Shown here: positions 8,167 through 43,608 of the stretch, in pieces | How positions within the stretch are numbered: position 1 is the first letter of the stretch | How the letters are laid out: the number at the start of each line of letters is the position of its first letter | Assembly (NCBI GenBank): GCA_008632985.1 | Contig: QPGO01000107.1 | Coordinates: 186,001-250,000, forward strand | Reading direction: 5' to 3' | Source of the DNA: Psammoneis japonica | Lineage: Eukaryota | Length of the DNA: 64,000 nt | The notes under the pieces: model-generated | Told to the model about the DNA's origin: nothing | The model's database searches: none | Seen by the model: only the letters and a program-made list of their open reading frames with translations | Translations under genes and position numbers: made by a program

Positions 8167-9099
8167 GTTTGAAATCCTGTCACGCGCAATTTCACGTGAA
8201 ATAAACAATGTAGCGGTTAAAACGGTAATAATAAAAGCTACATGAACAGATAAAAAGGATGTAAATTCCAACCAAAGACAACGTATACACGTGAATAAAC
8301 GACCATCCATGTTGAAATTTCCATCGTGGATGAGGACACGATTCAAATGTACACAGATGTCAGAGTGCGAAAATATATTGTATAAGCATACGTAGTAAAG
8401 CAATTGCTCAACTCCGACGTCGACCGTTCTTCGCGCGCGCGCTAGCACGCACCCGAAGGTCTCTACACGATGAGAGTGTGTCGGACGCACGCAATGGTGT
8501 CGAGTGTGCTCCATGTGCTGCCAGGGGATGTGATCCACTTGTTCGCTTGCTTTGATTGGCCTCTTAGACATCCATCTGTTCATTTCATCTGCTCCATTTG
8601 ACCTGGATCAAACAGCTCCCGTGCTCCAGCTCTGGGTGGGACCTCGCACCACTGAGCTGTGACATCAACAGTTTTTTGGACCACACGCGCACATTTCTGT
8701 GTGTGATGTTCTATGAAATCGTTCCATGCTCCCTGTTTTGCGAAGCCAAAGGCTTTCTGTTTTCAACACTCATGAGAATGAAAACATGCGCTGGGTGCAT
8801 TCTTCAATGTCTGAAAAATGCACCCGGGCAAAAACTGTTCTTGTTGACAATGTGCTGCAACTGTGAAAGAGGAGATGTGTTCACAAAATTGCCTCTTTTT
8901 CTGTTGGTGATCATTTGCATTTTCATTGCTTGACAAATTTGCTGCGGAGCTCACACACAGAATTCCATGGGCCAAATGTCACACGGAGTCCCACCTGGGG
9001 GACTGGAACCCGTCTCCCAGCCAGCAAGCCCTCGCCCAGCTTGCTTGGTGCTTTTTCAAGCTCTCTTCTCCCACCACACTGGGCTGGCACACAGAGCAG

Positions 9100-12000
9100 A
9101 GCAAGTGGGTCTGCTTCTTCTCACTGCATGGGGTGGGTAGAAGCCCCAAGGAAAACTTGATGATCAAAAATTGACAATGATTTCATTGTGTCACTCCAAG
9201 AAGCACAAAGTGCCCACATGCTTGTTGACGATGCACACAAGATGACGACACATGCCACAGCAGCATGCCAGGCTGCAGTGTGAAAAATGACAGTTTCAAC
9301 AATTTGTGTGTTCTCAGCAGCTGCAACTTACAATCACAAAGTTTGGCATCAAACACATCAAATGTCTCATGCATTCTCCAAGGTTGTGATTTCCTTCACT
9401 CACCACCATCTGCACTTGCAGGACATGCTGAAACTTCTTGGCTTTGATGGATTTTTTGCAAAATGAGAAGTGATGAAGAAAAACATGCCGCAAAAAAAAC
9501 ACTGTTGCTGTGAGCTGTGAATGCAGCTGTTGTCATTGAGCATTGAACAAGTTGCAGTTGTTGCCAGATGAAAAGAATGTTGAAAAGCAGCTTCACATTT
9601 TTTGTGCACACAAAATCATGCCAAGGACAGTGGAAAGAAACAAGCAATGATCAGGAGGAAGAAGTGCAAGGCTGGGGCTGGACACAATCCTGCAACACAA
9701 AGAAACTGCAAAATTTGCCAAAAAGGTGGGTGACTGTCTCTGTCAGAGAAAGTTTGCTTCGACAGCAGTTTGGATCATGATGGTCCAGAAAGCCTTGTTT
9801 CTGATGGTTTTGAAACAGCTTTAGAGGATGTGGTGGGCTTGGTGATGGGCCACAATGAAGCTGGTGGCCAGCAAGCTGACATTTCAAGCAGAGCAGAGTG
9901 AGCAGCAAAGCTTTTGACACTTTGGAACCTGAAGCTGATGACTTGAGTGTGTGGGCATTAAAGAGAGGGTGGCTGCTGCTGTTGGCACTTTGGAAGAAGC
10001 TGTGAAGCCAATGATGCAATGAGTGGAAATGTTGCAGATGCCACTGGAGAGAGTGTCATTGAAGAGAGTGTTGCTGCCAGCAATGGCATGGAATCTGAAG
10101 GTGCAACATTTTGGGCAGAGGGTGCAGCTCAAGTGTGCAAATGTTGCAGCTGACAATGCAGTGATTGCAGATGCAACAAGTGGAAATGTTGCAGGGGAGA
10201 AGGTGCTGGAGAAAGTGTTGCTGGAGAATGTGGCTGGCTGCTGGCAATGGCATGGAATTCAAAGGTGTTGTTCCAAGCAGAGAGTGCAGGTCAAGTGCAA
10301 ACAATGTGTCTCATCACAAACACAAATTGTCAAATGCTTTGCCAACAATCAAAATCAATGAAAAGACACCTTTCTTGCAGAGAGCTTGATGGCTGTTCCA
10401 GAAACAAGCAAGCAACCAAAAGGCAAGACAGTGCGCCCCACAAAGAGTTCAGTTAAAACTGTGAAAAAGTCAAAGGCAGAGGAAGAACATGCTTTGGTGA
10501 CAAGAAAGTTTGCCAGCAACAAAGAGACATCACCACACGCAAAAGCAGCAGGGTTGATTCCAACAAAGAAAGAGATGCAGCAGCTGCGCAAATCATGTTG
10601 CACCCCAGCAATGTGTTGCCAGCCAGTTGAAGCAGCAAACACCAAGAAAAACACAAAAGAATGCCCTGACTGTGACAGGAGCAATTGGTGGTGGCCAGCA
10701 GATTGTGCCTCCCACAGCTGCAGTGACTCACCCCCCATGTGCCATGCTGATGGCCCTCTTGCCAGCAGTCAAAGTCCTTGGCATTTGTGTGCACCATGCT
10801 CACAAGATCTGCCACCACTTGAACTGGCAAGTCAATGTCTTCAAAAGGGAATCCCATGATGTCTCCTGAGCCGTTTCTTGTTGCACTTGCCATGGCAGTC
10901 TGCAGCAGCTGTGGTTTGCCTTGGCATCAATGCAAGCTGCACAGCTGCTGGAACAACAGGTGCCTCTTGATGCTGACTGACAATCATGCAAACCAAATGA
11001 TTTGCTCCAAAGAGTGAGAACAAAACACATGCAAAAGAACTTGGTGATGGTCATGATCTCATTGGAGAAGGTCACATCAGCTGACCACGTCATGATCAAT
11101 GTCTTTCTCATTCAATTTATCCGGGTCACATGATGTGATGTCTGGGTCTCTCATCTTGACATTCCAACACACTTCTGCTGCTCACATTGATGATCTAATG
11201 TCCACCAGCTTTGCAATTGCAATCAGGCTTGGCATTGCCCCTTGGCATGATGGACACTCTCACAGACATTGTGGTTCCTCTAAAAGTGAAGAACTTGCAG
11301 TTGGCTTCAAACCACTTGGCTCATCACAGCCATTGGGCACAGGAATCTTTCACCCACATGCATCAGAATTCTTGTCTGACATCACAAACAGCTCATGCAT
11401 TCTTCACACTTGCCTTCTCCTCAGCAGCCACAACAGCTTGCTTTGCTTCTTGCCCTGCAGGGGCTTGGTTGTGAAGCCCCCCAACATGCCATCTTTTGGA
11501 CAGCACTGCACCTTTGGGTTGCCTTTCTCAACCTGATCTGTTGCAAAAAATTTGTTGGGTGATGATCACCCTGGACCATTTTCCTGCATTCTTGCACCCA
11601 TTTGTCTCCAGTGGGACAGCACTCTTGTTGTCCTGATGCAGAACAATCCTGTCAATTGGGTGATCTTAGTGCTCCATGAATGACTTGGTCCACAGCATTG
11701 TGGTCATTGCATCATTGACTCCAACCAGTTCAGCTTTTCAGTGCTGCTTTAGGTGCTCAGCTTCTGGCATTTGAAAACAGCTTGTGCTGTGCCTTCACCC
11801 ACAGTCATTGCACCTCCAGCATGGCTCTTAAAATCTGGGTGCACCACAATGCCACTTGATGACTCGGAGGTCTTTTTTGCTCAGTGCAGTGACTTCATTT
11901 CTTGTCTGGTTCAGGTGCTTGAGATGCAATGGACTGGCTTTCCCCAATCTTTGATGGCTGGTTCTCTAACTCGTGTGCACAGTGCTTAAATTGCAGGGTG

Positions 12001-12590
12001 CACATCCATGTGGCCTCTCTTGCACAGGAACAGTCCCTTGGCCACCCCCACATGTGGAGTGTCTGTGCCTTGCTGGCTGGCAATCTAGTGCCACCTGTGT
12101 CAAACAGGTTCACTGGTGCAATGGCAGTGCCAGTGCTCTTGATCTTCTCCAGGAACTGGTCAACCATCTTGTGCATGCAGCTGGTCATGTTGATCTTCAC
12201 CTTGTCCTTTTTGCTGAAGTCTGGGCTTCATTCCACTTGCACCTCACACACGTGCACACAGCTGCACAGTCTGATGACACCATGCACTGTGTGCGTGAGA
12301 TGACACATTGGTTGCTCAACTCCGATTGAGAGGAAACCAAGCTGTGCACTGTTCCAAAGTTGCACGTTGCTTGCTTGACCAGCAAGTCCTTCCTGCTGGC
12401 TTGCTTGGCACTTTTTTTAGCCTGCTCTCTCTGCTCCCCCCCCCCCCTCCAGCAGCAGCAAAGCAAAAAAGTGACTCTGCTTTTTCTCACTGCACAGAGT
12501 GAGCCAAAGCCCTGAGGAAAACTTGATCACAACAAAATTTGGCAATGATTTCACCATGCCACTCCCAAGAAAAGCACAAAGGGCCATTTT
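9100..12590 (+). repeat. Diverged dispersed repeat pair (~9100-9220 and ~12470-12590)
   Basis: Shared runs TTCTCACTGCA...GGAAAACTTGAT...AATGATTTCA...CACTCC(C)AAGAA(AA)GCACAAAG. Confidence 0.5.
10817..12300 (-). mobile_element. 5'-truncated Ty1/Copia relic: RT end, RNase H and 3' LTR (~11169-10817)
   Basis: Minus strand reads HPDFKSHAGGAMTVGEG...QKLST...ELVGVNDAMTTMLWTKSFMEH...LHQDNKSA. The LTR starts TGTTGG after a GCAGAAGTG purine tract and resembles the LTRs at 20749 and 28081. Confidence 0.75.
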
Positions 12591-15500
12591 GTTTTGTGAT
12601 GCACAAAACAAGTGAGGAGAAGGGCAGGCAGAATGCCACACAGCTGCTGCATGGTGGGGATGGGGTGGGGAAGGGGGGTCCATGCAGGGTCCATGCTTGC
12701 ACTGCATCAACAAGAGGGCATTGAGGCAAATCATGTGGGCCTTGGAACACAGATCACTTCCTGGCAAATGATGCAAGAATGTTTCAACAAGCAAATGCCC
12801 CAGAAAAGCACAGCAGGACAAGAGCCCCCACATGCCAAGTGCTGGTGGCAACTTGCAGCACATTTTGCACCCACAGCTGCAGCAACTCACCTGATGCACC
12901 ATGCCAATGGCTCACTCACCAGCAAAGTCTTTGGCACCTGTGTGCAGAAAATGCTCACAAGATCCACCACCACCTGCCAGCCACCAGCTTTGCTTGTTCT
13001 TACACAAGAAGCTTGCTCTGCTCTGCTTGCCCACAGTGCAGCCAAACCCTGCTCATGCACAGCACAAACTTTGCTCAAGCATGCTCCACCTGCAGAGCAC
13101 AAGCTCTGTTGAAAGAAATGGCACAATGTCTGTTTGCTGATGCAAACAGAGGCTCATCTCCTGCTGCCTGCTCACACACACAACAAAGGAAGAAGATTGA
13201 CTTTGCAAGTGTCATTTCACCAACCACATGATTGGGGCATTGACCAGGAATGCCACTGAAGCCAGCTCTGCATGCCTGCCAAGCAAGAGTTGAGCTTGCT
13301 GTTGGCTGCACTTTCTGACAACACTTGACAGCTGGGTGTTGTTCATTGACAAGAGCTGGTCCACTTTTGCCACTGCTGGGCATTTTAGCACATGTGAGAA
13401 CAAAAAATTCATTGGCCACATTTTGGCAACTTGATGCCAACAAAAAGGTTTTTTCATCCAGCAGTGCCAAGAGAAAGAACAGCCAACTGCACCACTGCAC
13501 ACACATGAACACACAATCATGGTTGAGTGAGGAGTGCAAGACCTGAGCAAGAGGAAAAACATTTTTCAGAAGTTGTGGCAGCAGGTGTGTGGCAATGCTG
13601 CTGTCCAGCACAACCAGCAAAATGGCTGTTTGATCCCTCTGCACTTTTCACAAATGGCACACAGCACAGGGTCCATTCTGGGCTTTCCATTGAATCTGTG
13701 TCACTTTCTCCACAAAGTTCTTCCAGAACATTTTGCTCTCATTTTCTGGTTCTTGGGGAGGGCCAGGGCACTCTTGCCCTGATGCACAAACACCCAAGTC
13801 ATTGCCGAGCATTGCATCAGAGGTGAGCACTTTACTTTGCCATCTCTTTTGTGCAACTGCTTTGCTCTTGCTCCAAACAATGATGCATTGATGAAGCCAG
13901 CAGTCTGCCCCCCCCCCCCTCTTGTCTCTCCATGTGGGTTGTGGTGCAAGATCTCAGGCAGCTGTTGTTGTTGACAGCATTTGGTGACTTGCTTGTTGAT
14001 GTTGTCAATGACTGCAAGAGTGACATCACTGTCTTGGCAACAAGAACTCAGCAGCCTGCCCCACTCCTCTAGATCTTTTTTTTCATTTCAACATGCCTTG
14101 AACCTTTGCAGCACACAGCACCACCAGCTTGACCACTCTTTGTCAGTTGAGGGTTTGTGCAGGACCCACACCTCCTGCTTGCAAAGTGGGTTCATTTTTC
14201 CTTTTCACTGGCTCTGGCCAAATGTCTCAGAAATCACTGATGAACACACAATGTTTGGACCTCCACAGGGCTTGCCCCAATTTGCTTTTTGATGAAACCA
14301 GACTCTCTTGTGAAGCTTTTTGCTCTTTTTACATAAAGTCACAGGTGAGCAGCATGGCTGAGCACTTGTGTGCCACTGCACACATCATGAACACCACATG
14401 CAGTGCCTTTCATCATCGTCCACTTGGTGATTGGTGATTCCAGACTTTTTCGTGTCAGTCAGCTTGTTGGCCAGTTTGTTGGTCAGTCAGTTTGTCAATT
14501 TGTTGCCACTTTGAAGCATGTGGTCAGTGAAGCAGCAACAATGCCAGCAAGGGCATTGTTGTGGGAAGGCAATGGGGATGATGGGGGCAACAGCACCACA
14601 GCAGAGTTGATGTCATGAACATTGTTTTTGCAGCATGCAGAAGAAATGCAGAATTGTTTTTCTTCACAAAGGGTGGAATGAAGATGAGCAGCTTTGGTCT
14701 TGCCATCTGAGCATGTGTTGGGGGGCAAGTTGGGGGCATGGAAGCACAGAAAAAAGTTGGGTTCCTGGTGCTGTTGGTGGGGCCCACTGGCTTCAGTTGG
14801 CTGCAGTGTCCAAAGAGAGGTTGAGAAGCCCACAAAGCCACAGAACATGATGTGTTGGGATGTTTGCAGGCAACAGGAGGCATGGCCCCATTTGCCCTCT
14901 GACCTCAAAAAGTTTGCAGAGCAAGATTTTGAGGGTGACTGAAGGTGAGTGGCCAAGAAGTGCCAACACACTCTCATTCCAGGTCAGGCATGTTGCCCAC
15001 TGCTCCTCAAAGTCATGGTTTGTGAAGTGGCAAACATTTGAGGTGCCATCACTCCAGCAAGTGTCTGCATGGCACACAGCAATTTGCAACTTGTTAAGCA
15101 CAATGAAGGTCATCATTTGTTGTGCAGACTGTCAATTCCCAAAACTTCTGTGCTGAATGCAAGATGTGATCTCAAGTCTCACAGCACAATGCAGGTGTTC
15201 CACAACATGAGTTTGAATGGCTGGCGCAGCTTGGCATGTTTCCAATTGGTTGGTTGCACCATTGACTCTGCCCATGCCAACAATCTGTGCAAGAGATGCT
15301 CTGCTGCTGCCATGGGCTGTGCAAATGCACTTGCTGGTGCAGCCACTTCTTCTCACCATTGCAAACATGTGCGCACAGAGGTTTGCAGCTGCAGGTTGGA
15401 CAGAGGCCAAATTTCCTGCAAGTGTTGCAAGGTTGAAGAATGTTCTCTGCAATCAATCTGTGCTGGAGGATGCTGCAATTAAGATGACAAATCAGTGAGT

Positions 15501-15693
15501 CCCAGCAGAGGGATTGCGACATGTTGACACATTTGTCAGCCCCATCTACCGGAATTCAAACATTTGAAGCTCACAGCAAAAAGCTTTTTGTTTGCTCTGC
15601 TGCAGTTTTCATTGCAACACATTCTGACCTGCCAAGAAGTTGAGGACTGCAAGGGAGTTCTTTTTCTCATTTCTCTGAGTTCTTTTGTCACAA

Positions 15694-18335
15694 TTAACTT
15701 GAGCAGCATGCTGCAGCATTTGTGCAAGTCCAGGTGTCTTGAAGAACACCCTGCTGTGCTGCCTGCATGCTCGCTGCAGCTGACTGCCCAAACCAACTGC
15801 TCGTGGATTTCCCACTTGAGTTTTTGGCAGGCCTGGCTTTGTTTCTGAGTTCATTGGAAAGAGCCGTCAAAATGCTCTTTGCTTCTTCATTTTTCTCCCC
15901 TTGCCGGAGAGCGAATTGGGGTTCAAGCACCATTGGCACTCCAATGTTTGCACGAATGTAAGGATGTGACGCCACAACCTCACCAACCGCTGCTCCGCCA
16001 GATGCAAGCTTGACAAAAGCATCCGTAACCCCAAAAGAATCATCATCTGGGATGCGAATGACACAAGCCACAGGTTCATTTCCAACGACTTTTTCAGCCA
16101 CACACCCATTGAAAGCACAGTCCTCATCGGTGGATGACGGCGGCGACCCAGATGCAGTGAGGAGACACAACGCCCGCGTGCAGCCACTCTCGGCAGCCTT
16201 GTCCAACATCTTTTCACATTCTTGTTTCGCTCGCTTTGGTGAAAAATGGTGATGTGATTTGATGGAAATGAAAAGCGGTGCAAAGAACATCTCACTCGTG
16301 ATTGAACTGGAAATTCGGATGGCACCGGCCATGTCTGTTAAAGGGCAGCCTCCAAAAACATAAAAAGCGGTGACGGATTCGTGTGGGTGCTTCAAGAAGC
16401 CTTGGTCCTTCAAACCCTCCCAACTGACTCCGTAAGAACAAAGGTAGTTGTGACAGACTTGAGTGAAGTTAACCGTCACCCTGGCATTTGAGGAAGGCAC
16501 AACGGGCTTTTTGGGGCGCCCTCCGCACTGCAAAGCACCAAGCCAATGTCCAATGAAACAGAGAACGTTTCTTCTTGCATGGATCGACGCAACTCATCCC
16601 CACAGAGCAACAAGTAAAAGGCAACCATCACTTCACCAAAATTGCCCTTCTCGGGAATGCAGATGCCCCGAGAGAATGATTCAGCTATTTTCCCAACCCA
16701 CCATTGTGGTTTCTTCCCATTGAATGGCCCGCATGTGAACTCTGGATCCATCAATCGCACAGCAAGACGGGCGCACACGGGATCGGTCACAAAGCAAATT
16801 CTGGCGGAACCTGATGAGACTGAGACAAGGTTTGCATGTCCGTTGGCAACGAGATTGGAAGTGATTGAAAAGGTCGTTTGGCCCGTTTGCATCCCAGTGG
16901 CAAGAACACTGAGACATGTGGGCAAGCTGTTCTCCCAATCCAACTTGCTTGAGAGCATGTGACCAACAACATTCTGCAGCTTTGCTTCAAGTGCATTGTT
17001 GGCATCCAAAACTGCAAACAGAGGGCGCCCGCAACGAGTTGCCTTCTTGCATTCGCTTCCTTTGTTCGTCTTGCTGATGCACCCCACAGTGGTCGTCACT
17101 GTGAACACCGGAAAAACCTCAGATCCTTTTTTGTAGAAGCTGGCATCCTCAGCTTTCCATTCCCTTGAAGGAACTGTGTTCATCAATCTTTTGTTGTCGT
17201 CAAACTCAAAGCGAATGTTGTTCAGATTTGCGGTGGTCCCGGCAAAGCAAGCAACAATTCTTGAGCCATCAGATCGTTGCTTTCGCAGCCACAAACAAAT
17301 GATCCTAAAAAGCAGTGATGGGTGCTCTGTTTTCAATGGTTTGTCTTCACTTGTCTCGTTGAATGAGCCCAAGCAATCTTGGGCTTCATCAAAGCAAAGA
17401 AAGACATTTTTGGTGGGCTGCTCCTTTCCTTCTGCAGTTTCATCCACGAGCCGATCCAGTGCTTCAAAGCCTCGATCGACTGTTGCGCCAACAGGTGTGT
17501 TTGATGCAAGAGTTCCTTGAAGGTCAGTTTGCTTTTTGAAAACTCGGTGTGCATTTTCTGGTGATGCATTGCCCGTCTTCATCTGACTCGGGAGCACCAG
17601 GGAGCACCGCCACCCGCAGTTGCTCTCTAATTCCTGACAGGCATGACACATGATCTTTGTCTTGCCCATTCCACTTGATTGCATCAAGCAAAAATGCGGG
17701 GCGTCCTGCAACTGGTTGTTCTCTTCACACCATTTAGACACCCTGACGGCTTGTTTCAAAAACTGGTTGACGTCATGAGTGTGCGAAAGTGCGATCTCTT
17801 CAATTTTGCAGTCCAGAGTCGCCACGCGTTTTCTCCACTCAGTTTTTCTACTTTCTTTGATGGCATTCACAAAGTGAATGGATGCGTCAATGGCCGCGTT
17901 TCGTGGCAGCTGCAGCGTGGCCAACAAGCATGCAACGGACTCGGCAAGGTCTTTTTCATTCGCTGGTGACGCCAAACCTTCAATCATTTGTTGCTGCTTT
18001 TCTTCTACAGCACTCTTTGCGGCTGGGTCTTTCACGTCCTTTGACCATTCCTGCACAACTTCAGAGGCAATGACTGTGGTCGAGTCACGTGCGGCGCTCG
18101 CGGCAGTGTCCACCACGAGCTCTGTCGATTCCGGTGCACTTTCTTCACCGTTTTCGATTGAGACCTGCTGCATCATTTCAGATGGATCCACCTCTTTGTT
18201 CCTTTTTGTTTGCCAAGGACAACTGGTTGTTTGCTCATTCGTAAGAGGGTCAGCCAAGAGAATGTCGGCAGCATGGGACCGACATGAAAAAAGTGGCCCA
18301 TCGTGATGACTTTTGTAAAAATTCGACAAACACAC
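15694..18335 (-). pseudogene. P-loop NTPase of the QSSGxGK (Crinkler/CR-NTPase-like) type, frameshifted near 16530
   Basis: Walker A QSSGMGKT, Walker B LCFDEAQ, then ACFAGT, GRPLF, DPVCARLA and KGNFGEVMVAFYLLLCGD. Only 3 Tyr in 619 aa; His/Cys stand where Tyr is expected (APHFCL, RCGRPLF, NGHANL). Confidence 0.65.
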
Positions 18336-31400: not shown

Positions 31401-34099
31401 TGACAGACAGTCATTCAGCAACTTGTTCTCTTGCTGCTTCACTTCCAGCATGTTCTTCAGGGACTTGGCAAGTGCATGGAATGGATGCCACCCTCTCATT
31501 GAGTCAAATGCAAGGGATTGGATCAGCTTCAGGGACTTGGTCGGATCATTCCTGACACTTCTTGGGCAACTGGGATCACCTTGCACTTTCTGCCTCATTG
31601 GTTTGGCACAGCAGTCATCTGGGATCTTGGCAAATGCAGCAGTCTTGTTCTCTTCAAGCTTCTTCACCTTTTCATTGTGATCATGTGGCTTGGCCTTGCA
31701 CTGGTGCTCCAGGTCTTTTTCTTCTTGTTGCTTCTCTGTCAGCTTGGTTTGGAAGCCAGCATCTGACTTGTGGTTTTGCCATCATGGACAAACCCAATGT
31801 GGGTTTCTCAGAACCAAAGATCTTGCATTTCTCATGTCTTCCAATGATCTCTCCAAATGCATGCCTTGCTCACATTCCTTCTGCATGCAACAGATGATCT
31901 TTTCCTTGGCATCTTTGAATGTTGTGTTGTGAGCATTGCTGTTCAGTGATGAAGGATGGAACTTCATCTCAGGCTGAAAGCTCTTCTTCTGGCTGATCTT
32001 CTTCTTGCTTGTTGCAGGAAGACTTGTGACCTTTGTGACTTCTGCCTTGGTTGTGACCTCAGCCTCTGCCACTTGTTCCACCTCCTCCTCTGCACAATGA
32101 ACACAGTGCCAGTGACTTTTTGGAGTCAATTCAACATCGTTGAATCCAACAAGGCTTTCTGTGCTGTTCATTGCATTTGCCCTGGTTCCTTGTCATGGTG
32201 CCTGTGGGTTGCTTAGAAGTGGTGTCCACACAAACTTCAAACTTGCAACACAACAGGCACCTGGCGACACCAAATGCAAAATCATGCAGTCCAAATGATT
32301 CCCTCCAAAGAGTCGGACAAACTGAAAGGGGAGAGAGATCAGTGACCATGAGATCTTGATCACAAAGAGTCACCAAATCTGCCACACTAAAAGCAATGGC
32401 ATCTTTTCTTCAATGCACCTGGGTTTCTTGTGTTTCCTGTGATCTGTGTTCCATCATGAGATTGCAAACACACAGAAATCAACTGAGAAATGTTGTGCCA
32501 TGAGCCTTGTTGACACCAGCTGAAAGTGAGGAGGAGAGCAAGCTGTGGACTCCTGCACCATCTTTGTCAAAGTGCTGTGCCTGGTGAGGTTCCCTTGGCC
32601 ACACCTTCAAATGAATCAAGTTGGCATCCAAGCACACAGCCATTTGCTTTGTCTTGGAATGGCGCTCTGAGTGCAGCTCCTGGCAGTTTGAATGAGCTCT
32701 GTTCTGCAATTTCTTGAATGAGCTCTGTTCTGCAATGTCTTCAAGAAAGCAACACAACAACGAGCCACCCTGTTGGTGGCACAGAAGCAAAGGCATGCAT
32801 GGCATCATCCACATGGCTCAACAAAACAATGGGTGTGCAATGTTTCTACAGACCACTGCAGTGTCATGTCAGCTGAGATGGCAAACAGAAATGGATGTTG
32901 TGCCACGAGCCTTGACACCAACTCAAAGTGAGAAGGAGAGCAAGCTGCAGACTGCTGCACCATCCTTGTCAGAGTGTGCCTGGCACATGGTTCCCTTGAC
33001 CACACCTTCCAATGAATCAAGTTGGCATCCCAACACACAGCCATTGGCTTCATTTCCAGCATCAATGGAGGATTGTCATTGAGAGGCACACAAAAATCTG
33101 AGTGCAGCTCCTTCATGTGGGTCATGTGCCCAAAAACAAAATTCCAAATTTTCTCAAGTCAAAACTGTTCAGAATTTCATGAAAATCAATGCAAACCATG
33201 ACTTGCTCCTTTCTCTCCTTTGTGCAATGATCATGCCATGACACACCACTCTTCTCCTCCCATGTTCGCATTGGAGATTCGTGCAAGGAAGGCTGCTTGT
33301 GTGACCACTGGCATTTTTGTTGTTTTGCTGTGTGCTTTCAACCACTGGTTGCATGTGTTCCCCCCATTTTCTCACTTTTCTTGCTGTTGATGTGCTGTCC
33401 TCATTTGATGTTCAACAAGGCATCCCACAGGGACAATGCTGCACTTTACAGTCAATCTTGTGCCACAAAGGCAAGGTCTCTCTGTGTCATTTCATTCTCC
33501 TCACAGTGCAACTTGGATGCCGCCGTTGGAACTCTGCAATGACAAAGGCTGGCTGTGCTGGCAAGAGGAGCTCAGACACCAGTCCTCTGGAGAATGAGCC
33601 TGTCTGCTGCTCATGTGTTCAGCATGTGGAGCAATTTGTGCCACCTTCCCATGGTTTGGCTCCTTTTTTTGGTGGTTGATCTTTTGTTGGCAGTGGCTCT
33701 TTTTTGGGTGGTGTTGGTTCCTGTCAGCTGGGGAATCAGAATGCAATGCATCAAGGTGCTGCACCATTGCAGGCTGGCCCTGTCACAACACTGCACCTGT
33801 CTTTTGCAACCATCATGGTGGGGTTGTTGGCTTTGGTGGCACTCCCTGTTGTGGGCGGCACTTGTGGGGTTCCTGCATTGAGCGAGTGGTGTTCCTGGTG
33901 TTGTTTTTGGCATGGCTGCTTCAAAAGGTTGTTCCAACTGTGTTGGAGGTTTTTCCCAGGGTGACAACACTGCTTGCTTTGGTGGTGGTGGGTCCAAACT
34001 TGGTGATGCTGTTGATTCAGACCATGGTGGTGCCTCTGTTGGATTGGCCACAAGCACCGACAACTTTGCAATGTCTCACATGCAGTTGATGGACCAGAT

Positions 34100-35110
34100 G
34101 ATCTCTTTTCTTTTGTCAATGTCACTGAACTGGATGGCTTGGAGAATGTCAGCTGTTCTGGTTTGAGGGTTGCATGCACTGACCCTCTGCCTTTTCCAAT
34201 GGAAGACATCTCTTCACTGTCTGATTGCAAGGTGACTTGCTTTGGCCACACTTCCAGCAATGCGCAACAAAACAGCTGTGCCAAAGGAGCACATCAGCAC
34301 CTTCACCCGGTCCCTGCACAAAACCTTTGGTCCACATTTGGTCAGCAAACAAAATGTGGAGACTTTTGAACAGCCATTTTTTGTCCACAATTTCCTCCAT
34401 GGACTCAAAACCATGAAGCAATGAATGCTTGAAGTCCTCCTCAAGGCAAGCAAACACACTCAGCAATGGCGCGTGACCTCATCTCTCTGCATCTTTGTGG
34501 CGGGGCCAATGTGTGGCCAACTGGCCTTGTTGCACTGTTGTTTCTGTGCATCATGATGAACAACATCTCTGCATTGCTGAAGGTCTTGGTGCATCTCCAG
34601 CATCATGTGCAACAAAGCCTCCAGCTGACCAGTGTTGTTGCCCCGCTTTTCAGACAGAAATCAAACCGTTGGTTGCCCTCTTTCATCAACTCAAGAAAAT
34701 GAATTGCATCCCAAGTTGACAAGTCTGACTGCATGACCTGGTGAAGCATCTTGGACAAGTTCTTTCTTGTGATGGCAGAGTCGCCAAAGATGGGCTGATC
34801 CGCTGTGTTCTTGCAGCACCTCTTTGCCAGCTCCTGCTGGGCAAACCCAGCGGCGATGTGGCACTGAGTCTCGTCTGTGTTGACAAGCCAAACCTGGACA
34901 TGATGCTTGAAATTCTTGATGAAATTAGCATCCATGTCAGTGCACACTGGCGTGCACATCTGAGGCAAAGGTTGGCGATCCTTTGGCTCGACAGGTGGGT
35001 TCTTCCATTCTCCATTGTGGCGACAGCGGATTCTGTGGACAAGCAAGACTGGGTGGCACTGATGTCATCAATGAAGACTTCATTGCAAGGGGTGGTGCTG
35101 CTGGACATCA
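34100..35110 (-). pseudogene. Degenerate ORF, possibly a MULE-type transposase fragment
   Basis: Protein-like frames (LSTWDAIHFLELMKEGNQRFDFCLK; ECVCLLEED) loosely resemble the region before the MULE DDE domain. Catalytic residues are not securely identified. Confidence 0.3.
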
Positions 35111-35171
35111 TGAAGGGGGAATTAAAACAACAACAACAGCAGATGATGGTTCTTGTTGGATTGGAGTGCTG

Positions 35172-35538
35172 TGCAGTATGCGACTGTTATATGCATATCC
35201 ATAATTATATATTATTAATATGTCAATCGTACCACAGTCGTGGATGCGTACAAAGGACAGAACGATCACACAGAGTTGATCGGATGTCGAAAATTGTAAA
35301 TACGATCGATTGACGATGTTGACATCTTACGTGTCAACAGCAATCGTATCCGGACAATCTGTTGTCACGAATATATTCTCCGAAAGGCCTTTTGTCTGTA
35401 GAAGCAGTACAAAAGCTTTAGGCCATTGAGAAATCGTTCGGAGAAACCAAAAATCACAGAACAAAATTTGATCTTATAATTTTCACTTTTCGAACTTCGT
35501 TCTACTTTCGTTTACACTCGTTCTTCGAGCATAGTGCA
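35172..35538 (+). repeat. 5' LTR of Gypsy (TpA-rich copy)
   Basis: TGCAGTATGC...GCATAGTGCA near-inverted termini; ungapped match to 42881-43247. Confidence 0.95.
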
Positions 35539-38500
35539 TTGTGTATACACACCACAGAAGGTAAAAAGCACGGAAAATGAAAATTTTAACTAATGTGCCT
35601 TTGTAAATTCTTCTATAAACAGGGACGAATCGCATCAGTTCTGCTAGAAACGATTTCCGAGCGGAAGAAGCTCAATCCGAGCAGTACCTCAAGATGGAAC
35701 GCTGTTTTTCGTCTAGCAAATGACAAGATTCGTTCTAATACGATCCATTCCAAGTGTCTCAGGACCAAGGACTCTACAAGAGCACAGCATTATCGAAATA
35801 TCCACACCAAGTCATGGTTGGGTAGAATTTCAAGTCTTGAGTCGATCAGGTCCGAGAAATACGTCTGGTGTACAAGGAGAGACTATTGGAGAGTTTTTAG
35901 AGACCGAATCGACGAGCCTCGAGTCCAAAAGCAAGATGGAACCGTTGGAAAGTACCTCAAGAGTCTCTTATCTCATGTCTTTCCAAGAATTGCACTTCAG
36001 AATCAGAGTTATTATTTTCAAGACGATCTGAAGAAACCAGAGCTGCTTAACAGCAAGGAAGCCTCTGTTAGACCCAAGAGGTCAATGAAGAGAGTCTATA
36101 CGACCCTTCAATGGATTCTAAGTTGAATCTAGCGGGAAACCGAGTCGTGAGCTATTAGCTATCACTCGCACCGCAAGGATGGCAGCATCAGTCTACTGTC
36201 CAAAACAATCAACTATTGCAACTCATCCTTGATGAGCTGATTAAGTTTTGAGTTATCTAAAGGTCGTTCATGACGTCCGTGATGAAAAAACATATCAACT
36301 CAGGCTCTGATAGCGCAGTTGGTTCCGAAATAAAAAAGGTTCCAAATTTGGTTCCAAAAATGGTCTCCTATATGGTGCCAGAACAATCCAAAGTGAATGC
36401 AAGGTCTAATCTTTGAAAAAAGAATACCTGCATCACGGATTCAAGCTATTCTGAAAATGAACTAGTGAAAGAATGCCGTGGACACATTTAGCGTGATCCG
36501 AAACGGCGCCGTTCAAATGGCAATCGCACGTGGAGTCGCGATAACGAAAATGCCACTCGCAAAAAAAGAGTTGAACGTCATGATTGATCAGGCGGTTCAA
36601 AAAACACTCAAAGCGAGTTCCTCGAACAAAGAAAAAGAGCATAAGGGCAAAGAATTGGATTCTGATACCCTCAGTGAAGAAAATTACCAATTTGATCGGA
36701 TGATCCAGAGTGAATCCGAAGAACAATTTTGGTCCATTCACGAATTATATGCTTTACTGGACATTAGGAAGCCTAGAAAAAAGGCAGAAATAATTCATGC
36801 TAGTCCAGGAGTCATCATTCATATGAACACTTCCTTGGGAAAGGAGAGAAAAAAGCATCTACGTGTTCCTATCGATAACGGAACATCGTCACCATAATTT
36901 TGCGCAAATTCGTGCGAAAGTTGAGAACACAAGAATCCGCCACCAAAAACTTGGGAAACCAAGGGTGAGCTCTTTACGACTGATAGTAAACACCGAATTC
37001 AGTTTCTCACTATGCCAATTTAAAAGACATGCTATATTTTAACACAGTATATGTTGATAACACGAAATCTTCTTCAAGTTCATATGATGTGATCATGGGA
37101 CGCGACTTAATGTCCAGTCTTGTAATCACATTAGACTACGGAAATGAAGAAGTCAAATGGGAAGAAGCAATTACCCTATGAAGAATGTTCATACACTCTT
37201 CGATGCCGATGTTTTCAAGCTGAAAACCATCACATTGAAAAATGTGACGCCGTGAATAGAGTTAACAACGGAACCAATGGTCCTTGACTCACATTATCAC
37301 GCCATCGATCCTAATCAAGTGACAACTACGGCGATGCATCTGACCCAAATGAACACAACCAACTCAATCTTCTTCTTAAGAGGCCGAAATCTTTTTGAAA
37401 AGTTCCTCAGACGAATGTGTGGGAAGAACCAGTGGATCTCATCGTGGAAAATCTGACGCGATTCCACGATGCGTGAGAACCTTCTCCCATCACAGTCTTT
37501 GGAGGTGTCCAATCAAAAGGAGTTTGACCCATCATGAAAGATTGAAGTCTTAAAAATGAAATTGCTCTGAATCAGTCGCTCTGAGACTCATTGTCCAAAG
37601 AAAACAGGTCGAGTTTGACCGCACCCGACACTCAGAAGCTCAGCAAAAGGTTCACACACGTGGTGCATCCTTTACCCAATGTTCAGGAAATGCCATTGAA
37701 GCAAGAAAATTTCATGTGTGCAATCTATTTGACTCAAATGTGGAATGCCACCATGTCAAATGAAAAAAGCACACGTCGTGCTCACACGAAAATCATGCCG
37801 TGGGGAAAAAATGAGCACCACAGACTTCCAACGAGAAGCCACAGAGCCCCAGATGTTTTTGTGCAACACATGAGTGAAGTCATGGCAGGTTTGAAGTTGT
37901 CAGAACGACCACAAATGATTGTTCATGCCTGACAAAAAGTGACTTCAAAATGTCACCTGCACAAGTGACAGCTCAACACGGCATTCAAACGACTGGAACA
38001 GTCGCTTAGAAGGTCAACAACAAAAGTCCTTCACTGTTTGACTTGAAATGAACTGTCAAGACTTCCATGCGCAACGACATGCAATCGATTGCAAAGAAAA
38101 TGGAGGCGATTCAAGCAATCGCAACATGAGAAAAACGCAAAAAACACTGCGACATCTCGTCGTCACACGTTGCTGCTGTCGAGACATGTAGTCTCAACGA
38201 TCTCCTGTGCAATGCTGGGCAAATTCACCTCAACAAAGGTCAAACGGCAAAAGTGCAAGTACGGAATGAAAAGTCTCCGAAAATGTGGAGCGCATCAAAT
38301 CAAAAACTGTGTTGTCATCACACACGCATTTCAATGTCACACGTTGCAACAGAAAAAAGAACTTCTGTCCACAGTGAAAACACTTGTAAACTTCCGAAAC
38401 ACACTGTTTGGCCAACAGATTTGCATGTGTGCGGATCACAAGACACAACGGACAAAGTCACACGTTGGCGACTTACAACAGAAAACTTCAGTCCCGAATT

Positions 38501-39701
38501 AAAATGCAGCGAGGGCAAGGCGAACATCGTCGCGACAGACGCGATCAGCCGACTTACCACAGAAAATTGAATCCTGCGACAATGTCCTGCCGTTAAAACG
38601 GGGTGAAGACATTCCCTCCAAATTGTCAGACGCGACACATCATACGAACACTTTTCGTGGAGGCGAGCAAGATCGAAAAATGCTCATGTCACAAGGACAA
38701 AATCGCCTCATTTTAAAGGACAGTTAGAAAAAAAACTCTGTGATAGATTGGCACACGGTGTTACAGTGTCCACTTCACACTGGCAAAAGACAATCTCACA
38801 ACACCCGCACGGTTGCATTGTACAATGTGCGAGGCAAGACATTAAAATGTGCATCATGTCGACATACGAGATGTGCCAAAGATCTAGAAAAAGAAAAGAA
38901 AAATGGACATTTGTCCACTCAGTGCACGAAACCAGTGCCTTCGGAATGACAAAACAACACCGGCATGTCAGAAAGAAACGTCCAAATGATGATTAAAATC
39001 CAACTGACAGATGGTTGAAGCACAAAAAAAAATCCACAATGGAATTCATGACCATCACAGGATTGATTGTCAAGACGAAATGGTCACAACATCTTTGACC
39101 ATCGCCAATTGTTGCTTGTGAAACGTGGCAGTGCAGCAGAGCAACATGGCACACAGCAAGCCCGCCAAACTGCACGAAATCCACAAGCAAGCAAGTGAAC
39201 GCCAATTGAGTGCGCACATCAAGCACTGGGCAAAATGCCATGTACAATCGACACCATGAAAGAACAGCAGGACAATTGGTCCTTGTGTCCACATGAACAA
39301 AATGATGTCAGAGAGAATGCTGACACAATGCCACAGCACACTGTGTGAGACTGACTAAATAGAAAGGTCACCATTTGCCAATTTTGGGCCAAAAATTGAG
39401 TTTTTTGCTTTTGGCATTAGTGAAAACTAGAGCAAAAATGCTTTCAAACGATGTGTCGGTCATTTTGTGGGTCCGATTTCTTGAAAAATGGCACCAATCT
39501 TGGGGTTTCCATGGGATCGCATGCCGGACGCACGCACTCTTCAAAATGCACGTAAATTGCATGCCACGCACTTTGTCAGCCACGTAAGAAGCTGCTGTTG
39601 TTGCCGCTGGTGCACTTTTGGCAGCCATTTTTATTTTTTTCAGAAAATGGAACAGCACACCATTTTCCCGCAGCAGCAACTGTCTTTCGTCCACAATCGC
39701 A

Positions 39702-41994
39702 ATGGACGACGACGATGCCGGCAACAACCGGTCTGACTCAGTTGGCAGCCTGCATGCAAAGCTCAGAGTCAAGCCTCACCCTTCACGTGAGGATGCTCTT
39801 GAGATGTGCAAGGAATTTCTTCAAAATGCATTTGACAGCCCGAAGTGTGTGGATGTTCGGGGGCGGCCAACGAGGTGCGAATGTTTGCATGCTTTTCGGA
39901 CGCGGACAGAGTGGCTTCCCTGTGTTGCAAAGTTCATGTTGGATGAGGTGGCACACAAGAGCAGAGACGACAGGGAGAGCTGCATCCTGCAACAATGTCG
40001 GTCACACCAGTCCACGAAATTTCTTCCCGTTCCAGCTGCGGGCAAGCCACCGGGCTCCAACGTGTTGACATGCAAAAATGCTTTCAAGCACATTATGAAT
40101 GTACGTCAAAAAGCTGACAGAAGGGTGAAAGAGGTGATTCAATCAAACATGGCAACGTCGCATGGCAACAAGGGCAAACCATCAAATGCAAGAATGAAGG
40201 TGGACGTGGAAACGTCGTTGCACGTTTTTTTCAAAGACATGATGGAACTTGCTTCTCCTCGAGCCACAAGGTTTGTTCGACTAGAAGTCGGAACAGGGAC
40301 CAGGGATGATGATGAGGAGCTGCTGGAGCTCCCAACCCATTGGACGGCTCGCCGACTGTACGGCAAATGGGTTGGCGAACGAGGATGGAAAGCCAAGCTC
40401 AAGAATGACAAAGGGGTGATTGAATTGACACAAGCAGCAGAAGACGTGGAGCCGCAAAAGACAGTTGTTTTTGAAACTTTCCGTTCTTTCTGGAAGAGAA
40501 GCACCCAAAGCTAGTTCTTCCTAAAGCTAGGGAGGACATTTGTTCTGACTGCTTTGTGCTGTCGCACACTTTTCGTTGCTTCTCGTCGCCTCGTCCTTTG
40601 AACAGCAGTGACACTCCAGTGAATGGACATCTAAGGAGAGAGGAGGCAGTGGCAAAAGCTCAAATCCACATCCAACAGGCTGCTGCTCAGAGAGAACTGT
40701 TCAATTCTCTCACTGCCGAATGCCTTGAACAGGAACTTGTTGACGTGCTTGTTGGCGACTGTTCCGAAAACATGGACCTTCCACACCTTGGCAATGAGCA
40801 ATCAGGTGACACTCACTGCTTTTCTCCATTGAATGTAAATTGTTTTGGACTTGTCAACATGAAAGACAACTTGCTCCAAGCACACGTGTGCCACAAGGGC
40901 CAAGGTAAAAAAGGAGGCAACAACGTCGCATCACTCATCATGAAGCATCTAAAGGACAAAGGGCATTTGGAGGTTGATGATGATGGAACAGCAAAGCAAA
41001 TTCGAGCAAAGCTCACTGTTGTTGTGGACAACTGCTGGGTCAGAACAAGAACAGGATGGTTCTTCGGCTGGCCCTCTACTTGGTTGAGCGGGGATTCTGT
41101 CAAACCGCACAGTTTGTGTTTCTTGTAGTCGGGCACACAAAGAACCCTTGCGACCGGATGTGTGACATCTTGAAAAAGCCACACAGAGACTCCAATGTCT
41201 GTGCCTTCAAGCAAATGATGGAATTGTTGAATGAAAACGAGAACACCACCGCCGCCGCTGTGGACGAGGAAGACTTCCAAGACTGGGACAAGAAACTCGA
41301 TTCATTGTGTCGACGCTTCGCCCCCAGCACCATCCACAAGAGCCACATCTTTTCTGTGACAAAAGCCTCGCCAACTGACATGAAAATTCAGGTGTCTTGC
41401 CGGGAGGAGGATCAAGGTGAGACTGCCACAAGAGAATTCAAAAAGCCTGGGACCAACAGCAACAGAATGGAGCTCTTGCAGGCGGCACCCCAGGTCATTC
41501 CATTTCCTGGAATTCCCGACATCAAACAAACAGAGCTTGGGACAAAATGGAGGAAGCATGTTCCAGTGGAGTGTCAGGATGAGATTTGCCCCACACCACC
41601 ACAAGCAATGATCGACAGACACAACAAGTCAAAAGCAGACAAGGCCAAAAGGAGCAAAAAGACTGTTTCCAATTCAAGATCAGGACAATCTCCCACTGCC
41701 GCTGCTGCTGCTGCATCCACTCAACCCCCAGCTGTTCCTGCCACTCAACCACATTTTACAGCCCAGCAACCTGCAGCACCAGCTGCTGCTGCCGCCCCGC
41801 CGCCGCCGCATTTCGTCAACCCGAATTTCGTCAACCCGCATGGTCTGCAACAACAAATGCTTCTGATTGCGGCATTGCATCCAACTGCAGCTGCTGAAGC
41901 ACAACAGCACATGCAAACCCTTCACTCCACTCTTAACTGTTCTGCCATTGAGGAAATTTTGGCGCGTCCATGTGGTCCCCACTGGCACGGTTGA
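39702..41994 (+). pseudogene. DDD transposase (Sola-like), frameshifts near 40505 and 41040
   Basis: Motifs DCSENMDLPHLGNEQSGDTHCFSPLNV, KKGGNNVASL, VVDNC-(GQ)NKNRMV and FLVVGHTKNPCDRM. Expected Tyr positions read His or Cys. Confidence 0.8.
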
Positions 41995-42019
41995 TTGGTT
42001 GGAGCGATCACGTCGGCGG

Positions 42020-42512
42020 CACTGTCCATCTGAACAGAGTGCACGACAACAAAAATTTTAGACGACACCAAAAAGAAACACAACCATCACACTTGATGCA
42101 TTCACACCACCTTGTGTCCATGATGTTAATCATGTGACATTGACCCAGTGATGGTCGCTTCATTGATGCGGAGCACAGCCGAGTCACGTGGAAACCACAC
42201 AAAATCATCCAAGCAGAGTGCAGCAACAAGAATTTTAGACGACATCAAAAAACAAACACAACCATCACACTCGTCACATTCACACTGAGTTGTGTCCATG
42301 CTCTGCATCATGTGACATTGTTCCAGTGAGGGTCGATTCATGAATGTGGCCGAGTCGCAGAGAAACCACAAACATGCTGTCCATCTAAACAGAGTGTTGC
42401 AACAAGAATTTCAGACGACACCAAAAAACAAACACCACCAGCACACTCGACAGATTCGTGTTGCCTCATGTCAATGCTTTTAACCGTGTGACATTGTCCC
42501 AGTGACGGTCGC
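42020..42512 (+). repeat. ~177-bp subterminal tandem repeat, about 3 diverged units
   Basis: AGACGACA at ~42060, ~42237 and ~42413; GTGACATTG...CCAGTGA...GGTCG recurs in each unit. Confidence 0.8.
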
Positions 42513-42880
42513 TTTTTATGAACACAGCGGCATCTCCATGGTGCTGCTGCGGTTTGCGGTGCGCGTGATGGTTTTTTGCTTTTTTCTCAAAAGCAACCAT
42601 CACGTCTGTCTGTTTTCCATGGTTTCCTTTTTATTTAGTCAGTCTTAAATGTCTTTCGAGAGCATCGTGATTTGTCTCACGCTTCATGTGTGTGCACAAC
42701 GCTCTGTGTGCATGTGTGTGTGTTTGGAAATTGAAACGGTCCTGTGCTGGTCCATGTAAAACAACAACAGTCATTGCCAATGGCACAGTGCAGTTAACGT
42801 GGAGACATTGTTGACACTGTCAATGTCCGTCGAATCATTCCACTTAACGAACAACTCCAATGTGCAATTAGGGAGGCGAG

Positions 42881-43247
42881 TGCAGCACGCGACTGTTGTG
42901 TGCATGTCCACAATTGTGTGTTGTTAACGTGTCAATCGCACCACAGTCATGGATGCGCACAAAGGACAGAACGATCACACAGAGTTGATCGGATGTCGAA
43001 AATTGTAAATACGATCGATTGACGATGTTGACATCTTGCGTGTCAACAGCAATCGTGTCCGGACAATCTGTTGTCACGAGTGTGTTCTCCGAAAGGCCTT
43101 TTGTCTGTAGAAGCAGTGCAAAAGCTTCAGGCCATTGAGAAATCGTTCGGAGAAACCAAAAATCACAGAACAAAATTTGATCTTATAATTTTCACTTTTC
43201 GAACTTCGTTCTACTTTCGTTTACACTCGTTCTTCGAGCACAGTGCA
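42881..43247 (+). repeat. 3' LTR of Gypsy (TpA-eroded copy)
   Basis: Same length as the 5' LTR; 23 substitutions, no indels. Confidence 0.95.
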
Positions 43248-43608
43248 GCTGCGCAAGGCCGCGAGAAGAGGAAAAACTGTGAAGACAATGGCGCGGTGTT
43301 TGTCCTTAATGTGGGCGTTACAAAATGAGATTTTTCTTCAAGGATGAAGATTTTAAATTTGCAGGCCGGCGTTTCATCGACAATTAATATAGCTGACTAT
43401 CATATTTTTCCATTTTTATTAGGCGTTGAATATACCAATATTTAAAATTCTCGATTCAAATCCCAATGGCTCCCGCTTCCCGCCGAAAACCCGCCATCCC
43501 ATGATCAAAAAAATGCAAAAGCCATCGGCACTCATCAGTGTCGACGACTCGAACTCACCATAGCAGTGCACTCTGGACTCTTTCCGCTAGACACTCTTCC
43601 TCAAAACA

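Follow-up and report, generated by a model that had tools for sequence, protein, structure and literature searches.

The stretch analyzed here is a 64,000-nt window from a contig of the diatom Psammoneis japonica (GenBank assembly GCA_008632985.1, contig QPGO01000107.1, positions 186,001 to 250,000), and it is the only window our analysis covers; "the window" below means this whole stretch, with positions counted from its first letter. Between host genes it carries a block of transposon-derived DNA, in which two old tracts with Copia-type remnants enclose a tract whose reading frames are still open, followed by a younger long terminal repeat (LTR) retrotransposon and, further downstream, by a small isolated patch (Table 1). 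An earlier note had proposed that in 8470..43330 a genome-defense mutator converts A to G at TpA in silenced repeats, leaving TpG and CpA. Our results show a real TpA-to-TpG/CpA hypermutation that struck the transposon DNA tract by tract after its insertion, and we hold it on balance probable that this, combined with a deaminase acting in defense, is the right account of the locus.

Table 1. Transposon-derived features of the window and the tracts depleted in TpA.
Feature	Position	Strand	Remarks
Old saturated tract	8465..15700		TpA and CpG both erased; Copia-like remnants
Reverse transcriptase/RNase H-like stretch	~11,340-12,213	minus	Inside 8465..15700
TpA-only tract	15700..19500	minus	CpG mostly kept; reading frames still open
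299-aa open reading frame	15,697-16,593	minus	
627-aa open reading frame	16,479-18,359	minus	
Old saturated tract	19500..35171		Nested Copia-type elements
Outer repeats	20,409-21,072 / 32,142-32,880		
Inner LTR pair	21,156-21,515 / 28,083-28,443		
Copia reverse transcriptase/RNase H region	25078..26736	plus	Stop-broken; used for polarity
Second Copia reverse transcriptase/RNase H remnant	29640..30550	minus	WHVN at 30,169-30,180
Young LTR retrotransposon	35172..43247	plus	LTRs 35,172-35,538 and 42,881-43,247
Unmutated 5' part of young element, including 5' LTR	35172..37377	plus	Internal reference
Hypermutated tract of young element	37378..43130	plus	
Low-copy 3.5-kb segment	39322..42854	plus	Inside the tract; carries the THCFSPL motif
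DUF7869-domain open reading frame	40,984-41,991	plus	PF25273, E 6.8e-12
Small depleted patch	57,211-58,715		Beyond the interval of the earlier note; internal direct repeats
Direct repeats in the patch	57,651-57,776 / 58,010-58,135		

The ratio of observed to expected (O/E) TpA in 1-kb windows is 0.01-0.13 throughout 9,001-35,000, compared with 0.36-0.78 in the flanks (0.53-0.57 in the flanking genes), and 8,560-35,000 holds 82 TpA where ~951 would be expected at the flank rate (binomial P ~1e-298). The near-disappearance of TpA from the transposon block, from which the earlier note had started, is thus real, and its estimate by eye of ~25-30 TpA in 8.56-15.7 kb becomes 27 on counting. In this first old tract (8,560-15,700), the O/E is 0.06 for TA and 0.08 for CG (35 CG, 830 TG, and 852 CA); 15,700-19,500 retains 21 TpA (TA 0.09, CG 0.65), and 19,500-35,000 retains 34 (TA 0.03, CG 0.10; 90 CG, 1779 TG, and 1827 CA). 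The tract of the young element at 37,378-43,130 has 61 TpA left (TA 0.16, CG 0.73, GC content 0.471), whereas the flank rate predicts ~203 and the TpA density in the 5' part of the same element ~295, and ~80% of its TpA sites have been converted. The interval first proposed needs adjustment at two places: the depletion in it is genuine, but 35,172-37,377 is normal (TpA O/E 0.60), and an additional patch lies outside (57,150-58,700, with 3 TpA against 56 expected, TA O/E 0.03, CG 0.21, and TG/CA 1.8-1.9). In this one 64-kb window there are four depleted clusters of 1.5-15.5 kb each, all of them in Copia, LTR-element, or transposon-like DNA, and their borders are sharp to ~100-250 nt. The left border is bracketed by the TpA at 8,464 and that at 8,565, and the second tract starts at ~37,378 and ends at ~43,108-43,184, about 115 nt short of the end of the 3' LTR, so that tract ends need not match element ends.

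In the depleted tracts, the O/E of TpG/CpA is raised to 1.5-2.0, and the combined share of TA, CG, TG, and CA is 0.231-0.252 whatever the region. Essentially no change is seen in AA, AT, or the remaining dinucleotides; only TA, CG, TG, and CA, and secondarily GC, move, as though the sole event had been the replacement of TA and CG by TG/CA through transitions. The GC content rises slightly, because GTA becomes GCA and TAC becomes TGC. In the two tracts at 15.7-19.5 kb and 37.5-43.1 kb, TpA is lost while CpG is mostly kept, and only in the old tracts has CpG gone as well. The decay of CpG to TpG/CpA is therefore a second, slower process in the same elements, and the separation of TpA loss from it, which the earlier note had asserted, holds. 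Diatom transposons are CpG-methylated, and on the simplest reading of these sequences the CpG loss would represent 5-methylcytosine deamination in all transposon copies, accumulating with age. Such deamination explains the CpG loss of the old tracts and the changes of Arg to Gln, Cys, Trp, or stop, but it cannot remove TpA, and CpG loss lags behind TpA loss here. As the cause of the whole signature it was rejected, since TpA was lost without matching CpG loss in two tracts.

A similar picture could have arisen if, in repeats, modified bases at TpA and CpG had been miscalled in long reads and left unpolished; repeats are hard to polish, and the sequencing platform of the assembly is not on record. 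We compared the window with k-mer contigs from a public DNA sequencing run that spans the stretch (X1, library type unrecorded). The contigs have an even word depth of ~69 on the single-copy gene flank and on the TpA-free block alike, and they rebuild the TpA-free block between 24.5 and 35.2 kb, each contig of 0.5-2.8 kb deviating at 0-5 letters (for example, 32,407-35,247 with 5 differences, 26,608-28,248 with 1, and 24,903-25,498 with 0). Noisy reads could not give contigs of such uniform depth that match the block; these come only from accurate polymerase-read data, and modified-base miscalls are therefore unlikely. Miscalls at a palindromic site should also often give a TA or CG consensus, whereas a change of TA to CG is seen at only 1 of 19 mutated LTR sites, and the 5' part of the young element, with ~100-350 times the single-copy depth, is unaffected. 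The artifact is already largely refuted, and we rate it as very improbable. In the single-copy old block, X1 and the window differ at 27,135, 32,718, 32,848, 33,267, 33,506, and 33,714 (depth ~69 each); two of these six differences are CpG in the window and TpG in X1, one is TpA in the window and TpG in X1, and they may be fresh changes of the same two classes or assembly errors.

The direction of the change can be read from conserved proteins. The peptide motifs from which the earlier note had deduced it are present as described (NPCNPC at 25,702, WHVD at 26,266, WHVN at 30,169 on the minus strand, GKNEH at 37,804, and THCFSPL at 40,811). The Copia reverse transcriptase/RNase H region at 25,078-26,736 has 36 homologues at E<=1e-10, all 36 with PF07727 and with 27-45% identity, and its translation was aligned with 26 homologues, which gave 307 strongly conserved columns, 166 of them matched by the window. 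Conserved Tyr is kept at 0 of 15 positions (7 Cys, 4 His, and 4 other), Ile at 2 of 12 (4 Met, 4 Val), and Arg at 3 of 19; the corresponding figures are 17/21 for Phe, 17/23 for Lys, and 8/9 for Gln. When the 141 mismatches were tested for reversion, a single TG/CA-to-TA step restored the conserved residue in 29 and a single TG/CA-to-CG step in 24, in total 53 compared with 16 for a control dinucleotide pair. The 627-aa open reading frame (ORF) of the TpA-only tract agrees with this: it is identical to its relatives at 127 of 176 conserved columns and keeps Arg at 8 of 11, but conserved Tyr at only 1 of 7 (3 Cys, 2 His, 1 Gln); Tyr makes up 0.5% of it, as against 3.2% in homologues. Together with the LTR pair described below, the Tyr columns and the reversion test fix the direction as TpA to TpG/CpA and not the reverse.

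The opposite polarity would require elements born TpA-free, for example by UpA avoidance, that then underwent a CpA-to-TpA change of the kind known from repeat-induced point mutation (RIP), or else families that are simply TpA-free by native composition. The LTR comparison alone gives no direction, and the lower GC content (0.405) of the TpA-containing half of the young element would suit such a view. However, the conserved Tyr residues have been lost, and TpA-free, Tyr-poor intact relatives, for which we checked, were not found: Tyr makes up 2.6-4.4% in the 36 Copia homologues and 1.6-5.2% in 150 relatives of the 627-aa ORF, thus at least 1.6% in all 186 homologues examined, and all 78 related metagenome Copia loci have a TA O/E of 0.37-1.09. 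These loci are the best 78 of 575 and were fished with intact-protein patterns, so that they were selected for intactness, and the absence of a TpA-depleted copy among them is therefore uninformative on the process elsewhere; a scan of a viral-contig set found no Copia relatives. The TpA-containing half of the young element is host-like (TA 0.60, TG/CA 1.11), with neither a TA excess nor a TG/CA deficit, and at 37,533 the window has CA while the family contigs (depth 3,437) have TA, with T in place of C. As the paralogue comparison given below also requires a TA or CG ancestor, we consider the reverse polarity and the native-composition view scarcely tenable.

The spectrum of the process is best seen in the young element, an 8.1-kb retrotransposon flanked by a 4-bp target-site duplication (GCTG), whose 367-nt LTRs have TG...CA ends and whose 3' LTR is preceded by a purine-rich tract. 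Its 5' part, 35,172-37,377, serves as an internal reference, and its profile (TA O/E 0.60, CG 1.07, TG/CA 1.11, GC 0.405) equals that of the host flanks; the ORFs within 37,378-43,130 contain only 0.0-1.6% Tyr. The two LTRs were identical at insertion and now differ at 23 of 367 positions, all of them transitions, with no indels and no transversions. At 20 of the 23, the 5' LTR has TpA and its 3' counterpart TpG, CpA, or, in one case, CpG, and the reverse never occurs; two differences are of the CpG type, one in each LTR, and one is at ApA. Relative to the 5' LTR, 21 of the 23 are A-to-G or T-to-C changes in the 3' LTR. In the first 255 nt of the 3' LTR, 18 of 22 TpA sites have changed, with a single change that is neither TpA nor CpG, and the last ~115 nt are untouched. 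The per-site TpA load is hundreds of times the background. As initially identical sequences 7.7 kb apart carry 20 and 0 TpA changes, this was a local burst and not slow decay, and 5-methylcytosine deamination, with one CpG change in each LTR, does not follow this distribution. The 13 A-to-G and the 7 T-to-C changes of the 3' LTR are interleaved when read along a single strand, and the change is therefore not strand-specific. A strand-coordinated deamination of resected single-stranded DNA was rejected for this interleaving, and GC-biased gene conversion was rejected as it is not dinucleotide-specific.

The sequence context is narrow. Counted on both strands of these 255 nt, A-to-G changes occurred at 19 of 44 TA, 1 of 37 AA, 1 of 38 CA, and 0 of 35 GA sites, and with respect to the 3' neighbor at 13 of 21 TAT, 5 of 12 TAC, 1 of 9 TAA, and 0 of 2 TAG. 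Error-prone repair synthesis by a Y-family polymerase such as Pol eta, recruited to methylated DNA, had been one of the mechanisms suggested in the earlier note, and Pol eta does produce A-to-G changes at its WA motif. WA includes AA, however, and with ApA changed at 1/37 and TpA at 19/44 within the same 255 nt, an AA O/E that is unaltered (1.12-1.35 in the tracts, 1.10-1.23 outside), and an LTR pair without transversions or indels, this candidate has fallen, and we give it next to no credence. The remaining composition supports the 3' preference: comparisons that set transposon against host DNA, and that are supportive only, show surviving TpA to be 5.3-fold enriched in TTAA and 3-fold in CTAA/TTAG, with 0 of 146 in ATAT, and strand-symmetrized trinucleotides of the TpA-only tracts to be reduced by 93% for TAT, 80% for TAC, 74% for TAG, and 54% for TAA, with gains per 1,000 of 12.3 for TGT, 9.1 for TGC, 4.1 for TGG, and 3.9 for TGA. 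The process is thus restricted to transitions, needs TpA, prefers a pyrimidine 3' of the A, and acts on both strands over kilobase tracts. The motif is T-A-Y if adenine is the target, which equals R-T-A if it is thymine, with the order TAT > TAC > TAG > TAA.

Comparison of resident copies shows when the changes took place. The second Copia remnant is an inverted paralogue of 25,895-26,739 (70% identity, 32 TG/CA-discordant dinucleotides), the first old tract is paralogous to 25.9-26.7 kb and 29.6-30.5 kb, and the inner LTR pair differs by 48 transitions and 8 transversions and has 13 TG/CA-discordant dinucleotides. Among 1,065 aligned pyrimidine-purine dinucleotides of the old-block paralogues, 176 pair a TG with a CA, compared with 12 for the next commonest tandem double change; the alignments overlap, and these discordance counts are not independent. 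In gene-internal tandem repeats of a neighboring gene, the same comparison gives 0 of 152. TG facing CA at one site implies a TA or CG ancestor that was resolved separately in each copy, and the observed discordance of 16.5% is close to the ~20% that an independent resolution of every ancestral TA and CG would give. Hypermutation therefore took place after insertion and independently in each copy.

This timing bears directly on editing before integration, in which retroelement RNA (by an ADAR-like enzyme on double-stranded RNA) or single-stranded cDNA would be modified and copies inserted already mutated. Partial tracts along an element are known for APOBEC3G editing of retroviral cDNA. Edits made at that stage should, however, be common to both LTRs, which differ 20 to 0 in the young element, and they would have to account for both kinds of change on one 3' LTR strand and for the TG/CA discordance of the old Copia LTRs. 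ADAR moreover prefers a 3' G, while the preference found here is for T or C, and to our knowledge ADARs are restricted to animals. A 5' U/T preference is typical of ADAR and would suit such editing, but in the alga Bigelowiella natans, to which we return below, the corresponding mutations arise in integrated single-copy DNA (for both points, Mettrop et al., bioRxiv 10.64898/2026.01.13.699255). Pre-integration editing thus appears quite improbable to us.

The earlier note had called the hypermutation repeat-localized, and this description can be kept only in part. All depleted tracts are transposon-derived, but the mutated part of the 8.1-kb young element is only ~5.7 kb long, the matching part of its family has a depth of ~100-350 times single copy, and gene-internal tandem repeats at 44.7-45.3 kb have been spared. 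The X1 word depth is 7,000-24,000 at 35,173-39,174 and 42,510-43,176 (~100-350 times single copy, against ~69), whereas the segment at 39.3-42.85 kb has a depth of 260-900. One X1 contig of single-copy depth joins 39,321 to 42,855, skipping 3,533 nt, so that the DUF7869-bearing segment must be missing from one or more other copies of this element, and it may represent cargo or a nested insertion. The hypermutated tract brackets this low-copy segment, and this may be a clue to how tracts are chosen. In the young element, it is the half facing away from the old block that is mutated, and simple spreading from older mutated DNA therefore fails as an explanation. Between 39,500 and 42,300, the X1 contigs that have 2-3 times the single-copy depth disagree with the window chiefly in three kinds of dinucleotide (among 40 of 259 rows: 7 pairs of TG versus CA, 5 TA versus TG/CA, and 5 CG versus TG/CA), and a few sister copies of this region seem to have been hypermutated independently. 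For the single-frame read-through of 39,588-41,991, no relatives were found, the query being a poor one as its three ORFs sit in different frames.

The coding consequences of such a process are peculiar. A change of TpA to TpG/CpA cannot create an in-frame stop codon and removes TAA and TAG, and with both lost, the whole of 8,500-35,000 is filled with overlapping stop-to-stop ORFs of 100-280 aa in several frames; in the tracts, long overlapping open frames are present in all six. The 627-aa ORF of the TpA-only tract is still open, and most stops of the old Copia go back to CGA-to-TGA changes. Genes are damaged by missense changes (Tyr to His/Cys, Ile to Met/Thr/Val, and Leu to Ser/Pro) and would be damaged further by the loss of TA-containing signals. 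A Pfam scan of 148 stop-to-stop ORFs of at least 90 aa at 8-39 kb gave no credible match, and five sub-threshold matches are chance. The 627-aa ORF itself has 356 relatives at E<=0.001, 105 of them at E<=1e-30, and its family corresponds to no Pfam family; two of eight longer homologues have weak P-loop matches (ResIII, AAA_22), from which the family may be predicted to be an undescribed mobile-element nucleoside triphosphatase.

How could DNA be altered in this way? The process converts A:T to G:C at TpA and almost nothing else. It can saturate a tract while the background barely changes, and because conversion destroys the target on both strands, each site ends as TG or CA, chosen independently per copy. 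We propose that a deaminase-fold enzyme, of the TadA/ADAT type or another, would deaminate adenine in DNA to inosine and would be recruited to foreign or silenced DNA as a defense. We infer adenine deamination because the transition-only spectrum and the obligatory 5' T fit it, and a DNA adenine deaminase is, as a guess, our leading candidate. The natural target of TadA/ADAT, A34 of the tRNA, always follows U33, from which a 5' T requirement would be inherited, and TadA favors a pyrimidine after the A (UAC); the context found here (5' T, 3' Y) is compatible with TadA/ADAT2-ADAT3, and for these enzymes, as for ADAR and the engineered TadA base editors, A-to-I reads as A-to-G. In contrast to what is required here, the natural TadA, ADAT, and ADAR enzymes act on RNA, and we know of no characterized natural example of a deaminase that acts on both chromosomal strands over kilobases.

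The same data can be turned around, as TpA is palindromic. A TET/JBP-type oxygenase or another enzyme could modify the T in R-T-A to a product that mispairs with G, such as 5-hydroxymethyl- or 5-formyluracil, and so cause T-to-C changes. All dinucleotide, LTR, and context results fit this equally well, the order then being ATA > GTA > CTA > TTA; 5-formyluracil is mutagenic, and 5-hydroxymethyluracil sits at TpA in dinoflagellates. Oxidized thymines also give transversions, though, of which there are none among the 23 LTR differences, and nothing here points to thymine modification in diatoms. The authors of the B. natans study favor adenine deamination, likewise without proof (Mettrop et al., bioRxiv 10.64898/2026.01.13.699255). 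Attack on thymine is in our opinion unlikely. Of the claim of the earlier note that A is converted at TpA, the specificity for TpA stands, and adenine as the base struck is our preferred reading of it.

Several points weigh against our interpretation of hypermutation by a deaminase in defense. The deaminase is a candidate only; the palindromic TpA means that sequence cannot separate A-to-G from T-to-C on the opposite strand. The tract covers part of one element only, which a model that mutates every repeat does not predict. For the young tract, polarity is deduced from the host-like profile of its counterpart half, from the Tyr deficit, and from a small number of family-contig rows, and the 3' context preference depends on 19 events together with comparisons of composition between classes of sequence that are unlike. 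The sample behind X1 may be the one used for the assembly, and with its library type unrecorded, X1 is not a fully independent replicate.

The closest counterpart is the chlorarachniophyte B. natans, in whose mutation-accumulation lines 230 of 231 mutations in integrated giant-virus and virophage regions were A-to-G or T-to-C, all at TpA, at a rate of ~6e-7 per site per generation, ~1000-fold above background, with only some lines affected (Mettrop et al., bioRxiv 10.64898/2026.01.13.699255). According to the same preprint, the B. natans genome has 124 clusters depleted in TpA and enriched in CpA+TpG, reverse-transcriptase and DDE-endonuclease Pfam domains are enriched among TpA-depleted coding sequences genome-wide, and an ADAT2-like deaminase is proposed, with DNA editing by amphioxus ADAT2 cited. 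Both systems show almost exclusively A-to-G/T-to-C changes, only at TpA and giving TpG/CpA; both are confined to foreign DNA with the adjoining host DNA unaffected, both leave clustered TpA depletion with CpA+TpG enrichment as the long-term trace, and neither is constitutive (some lines there, some copies or tracts here). As a proxy for the ~1000-fold rate, we have 18 of 22 TpA changed in 255 nt against 0 TpA changes in the sister LTR. The differences lie in the host, which is a rhizarian there and a diatom (Stramenopila) here, in the targets, which are inserts of giant viruses (nucleocytoplasmic large DNA viruses, NCLDV) and virophages there and LTR retrotransposons and transposon-like genes here, and in the extent, with a Rho of 0.45 for the NCLDV region and near-saturation over 26 kb here (O/E 0.03-0.09). 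To the account of B. natans, our data add the 3' preference (T > C > G > A), a tract that ends inside an LTR, and the separate CpG decay; the words "CpG" and "diatom" do not occur in the text of the preprint. The signature is therefore the same as that of the hypermutable viral regions of B. natans, in a different supergroup lineage. The earlier note, which knew of no description in diatoms, was right insofar as full-text literature searches, with subscription journals largely outside them, found no diatom report of TpA hypermutation, but the kind of process was already described in 2026, and the diatom case is what is new.

RIP in Neurospora and other ascomycetes is similar in that a local, dinucleotide-specific burst of transitions ruins resident transposon copies and leaves a sharp-bordered signature that can be read from paralogue alignments. 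RIP, however, changes CpA/TpG to TpA and lowers GC, whereas here TpA becomes CpA/TpG and GC rises (0.405 to 0.471 within one element), and RIP makes stop codons, which the process described here cannot. RIP is triggered by duplication and strikes all copies above certain limits of length and identity; here one of more than 100 copies was affected, and only over 5.7 kb, and a dependence on duplication may or may not apply. The enzymes of RIP (RID/DIM-2-type) are not implicated here. A more far-reaching view is that diatoms possess a DNA-editing defense in which a deaminase-fold enzyme is guided to new or silenced mobile DNA and edits 5'-TAY on both strands in kilobase tracts, and that this defense is old and widespread in SAR (stramenopiles, alveolates, and rhizarians), since the same signature occurs in a rhizarian alga; we put this forward as a tentative possibility.

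The flanking genes have ordinary TpA contents. The triosephosphate isomerase ORF at 4,830-5,891 on the plus strand has named relatives exclusively in diatoms, with 56-61% identity (Cylindrotheca, Cyclotella, Ditylum, Conticribra, Thalassiosira, Trieres, and others). It carries ~125 residues before the TIM domain, with the profile match beginning at position 54, and this N-terminal extra suggests a targeting extension, or else an upstream intron or fusion. On the other side, 43,591-49,773 (plus strand) is an uninterrupted ORF of 2,061 aa with no Pfam match, and inside it lie tandem repeats of ~145 nt at 44,751-45,329 that are 86-90% identical and without TpA depletion.

For genome annotation, the mutated tracts are full of long, Pfam-less open frames, so that gene callers may report orphan genes and repeat finders may miss the tracts. 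Any candidate enzyme would have to satisfy the constraints found here, namely the obligatory 5' T, the 3' order T > C > G > A, action on both strands, kilobase tracts with sharp ends, the absence of transversions and indels, and independence of CpG decay. In the more far-reaching view given above, the system would be a natural chromosomal adenine editor and a mechanistic mirror image of fungal RIP, and a natural enzyme of this kind would be of interest to the base-editing field. The finding is relevant to genome defense, mutation-rate variation, and algal genomes: TpA-directed A:T-to-G:C hypermutation would not be an oddity of one chlorarachniophyte, but would also occur in diatoms, which are major marine primary producers, and would act on retrotransposons as well as on integrated viruses.

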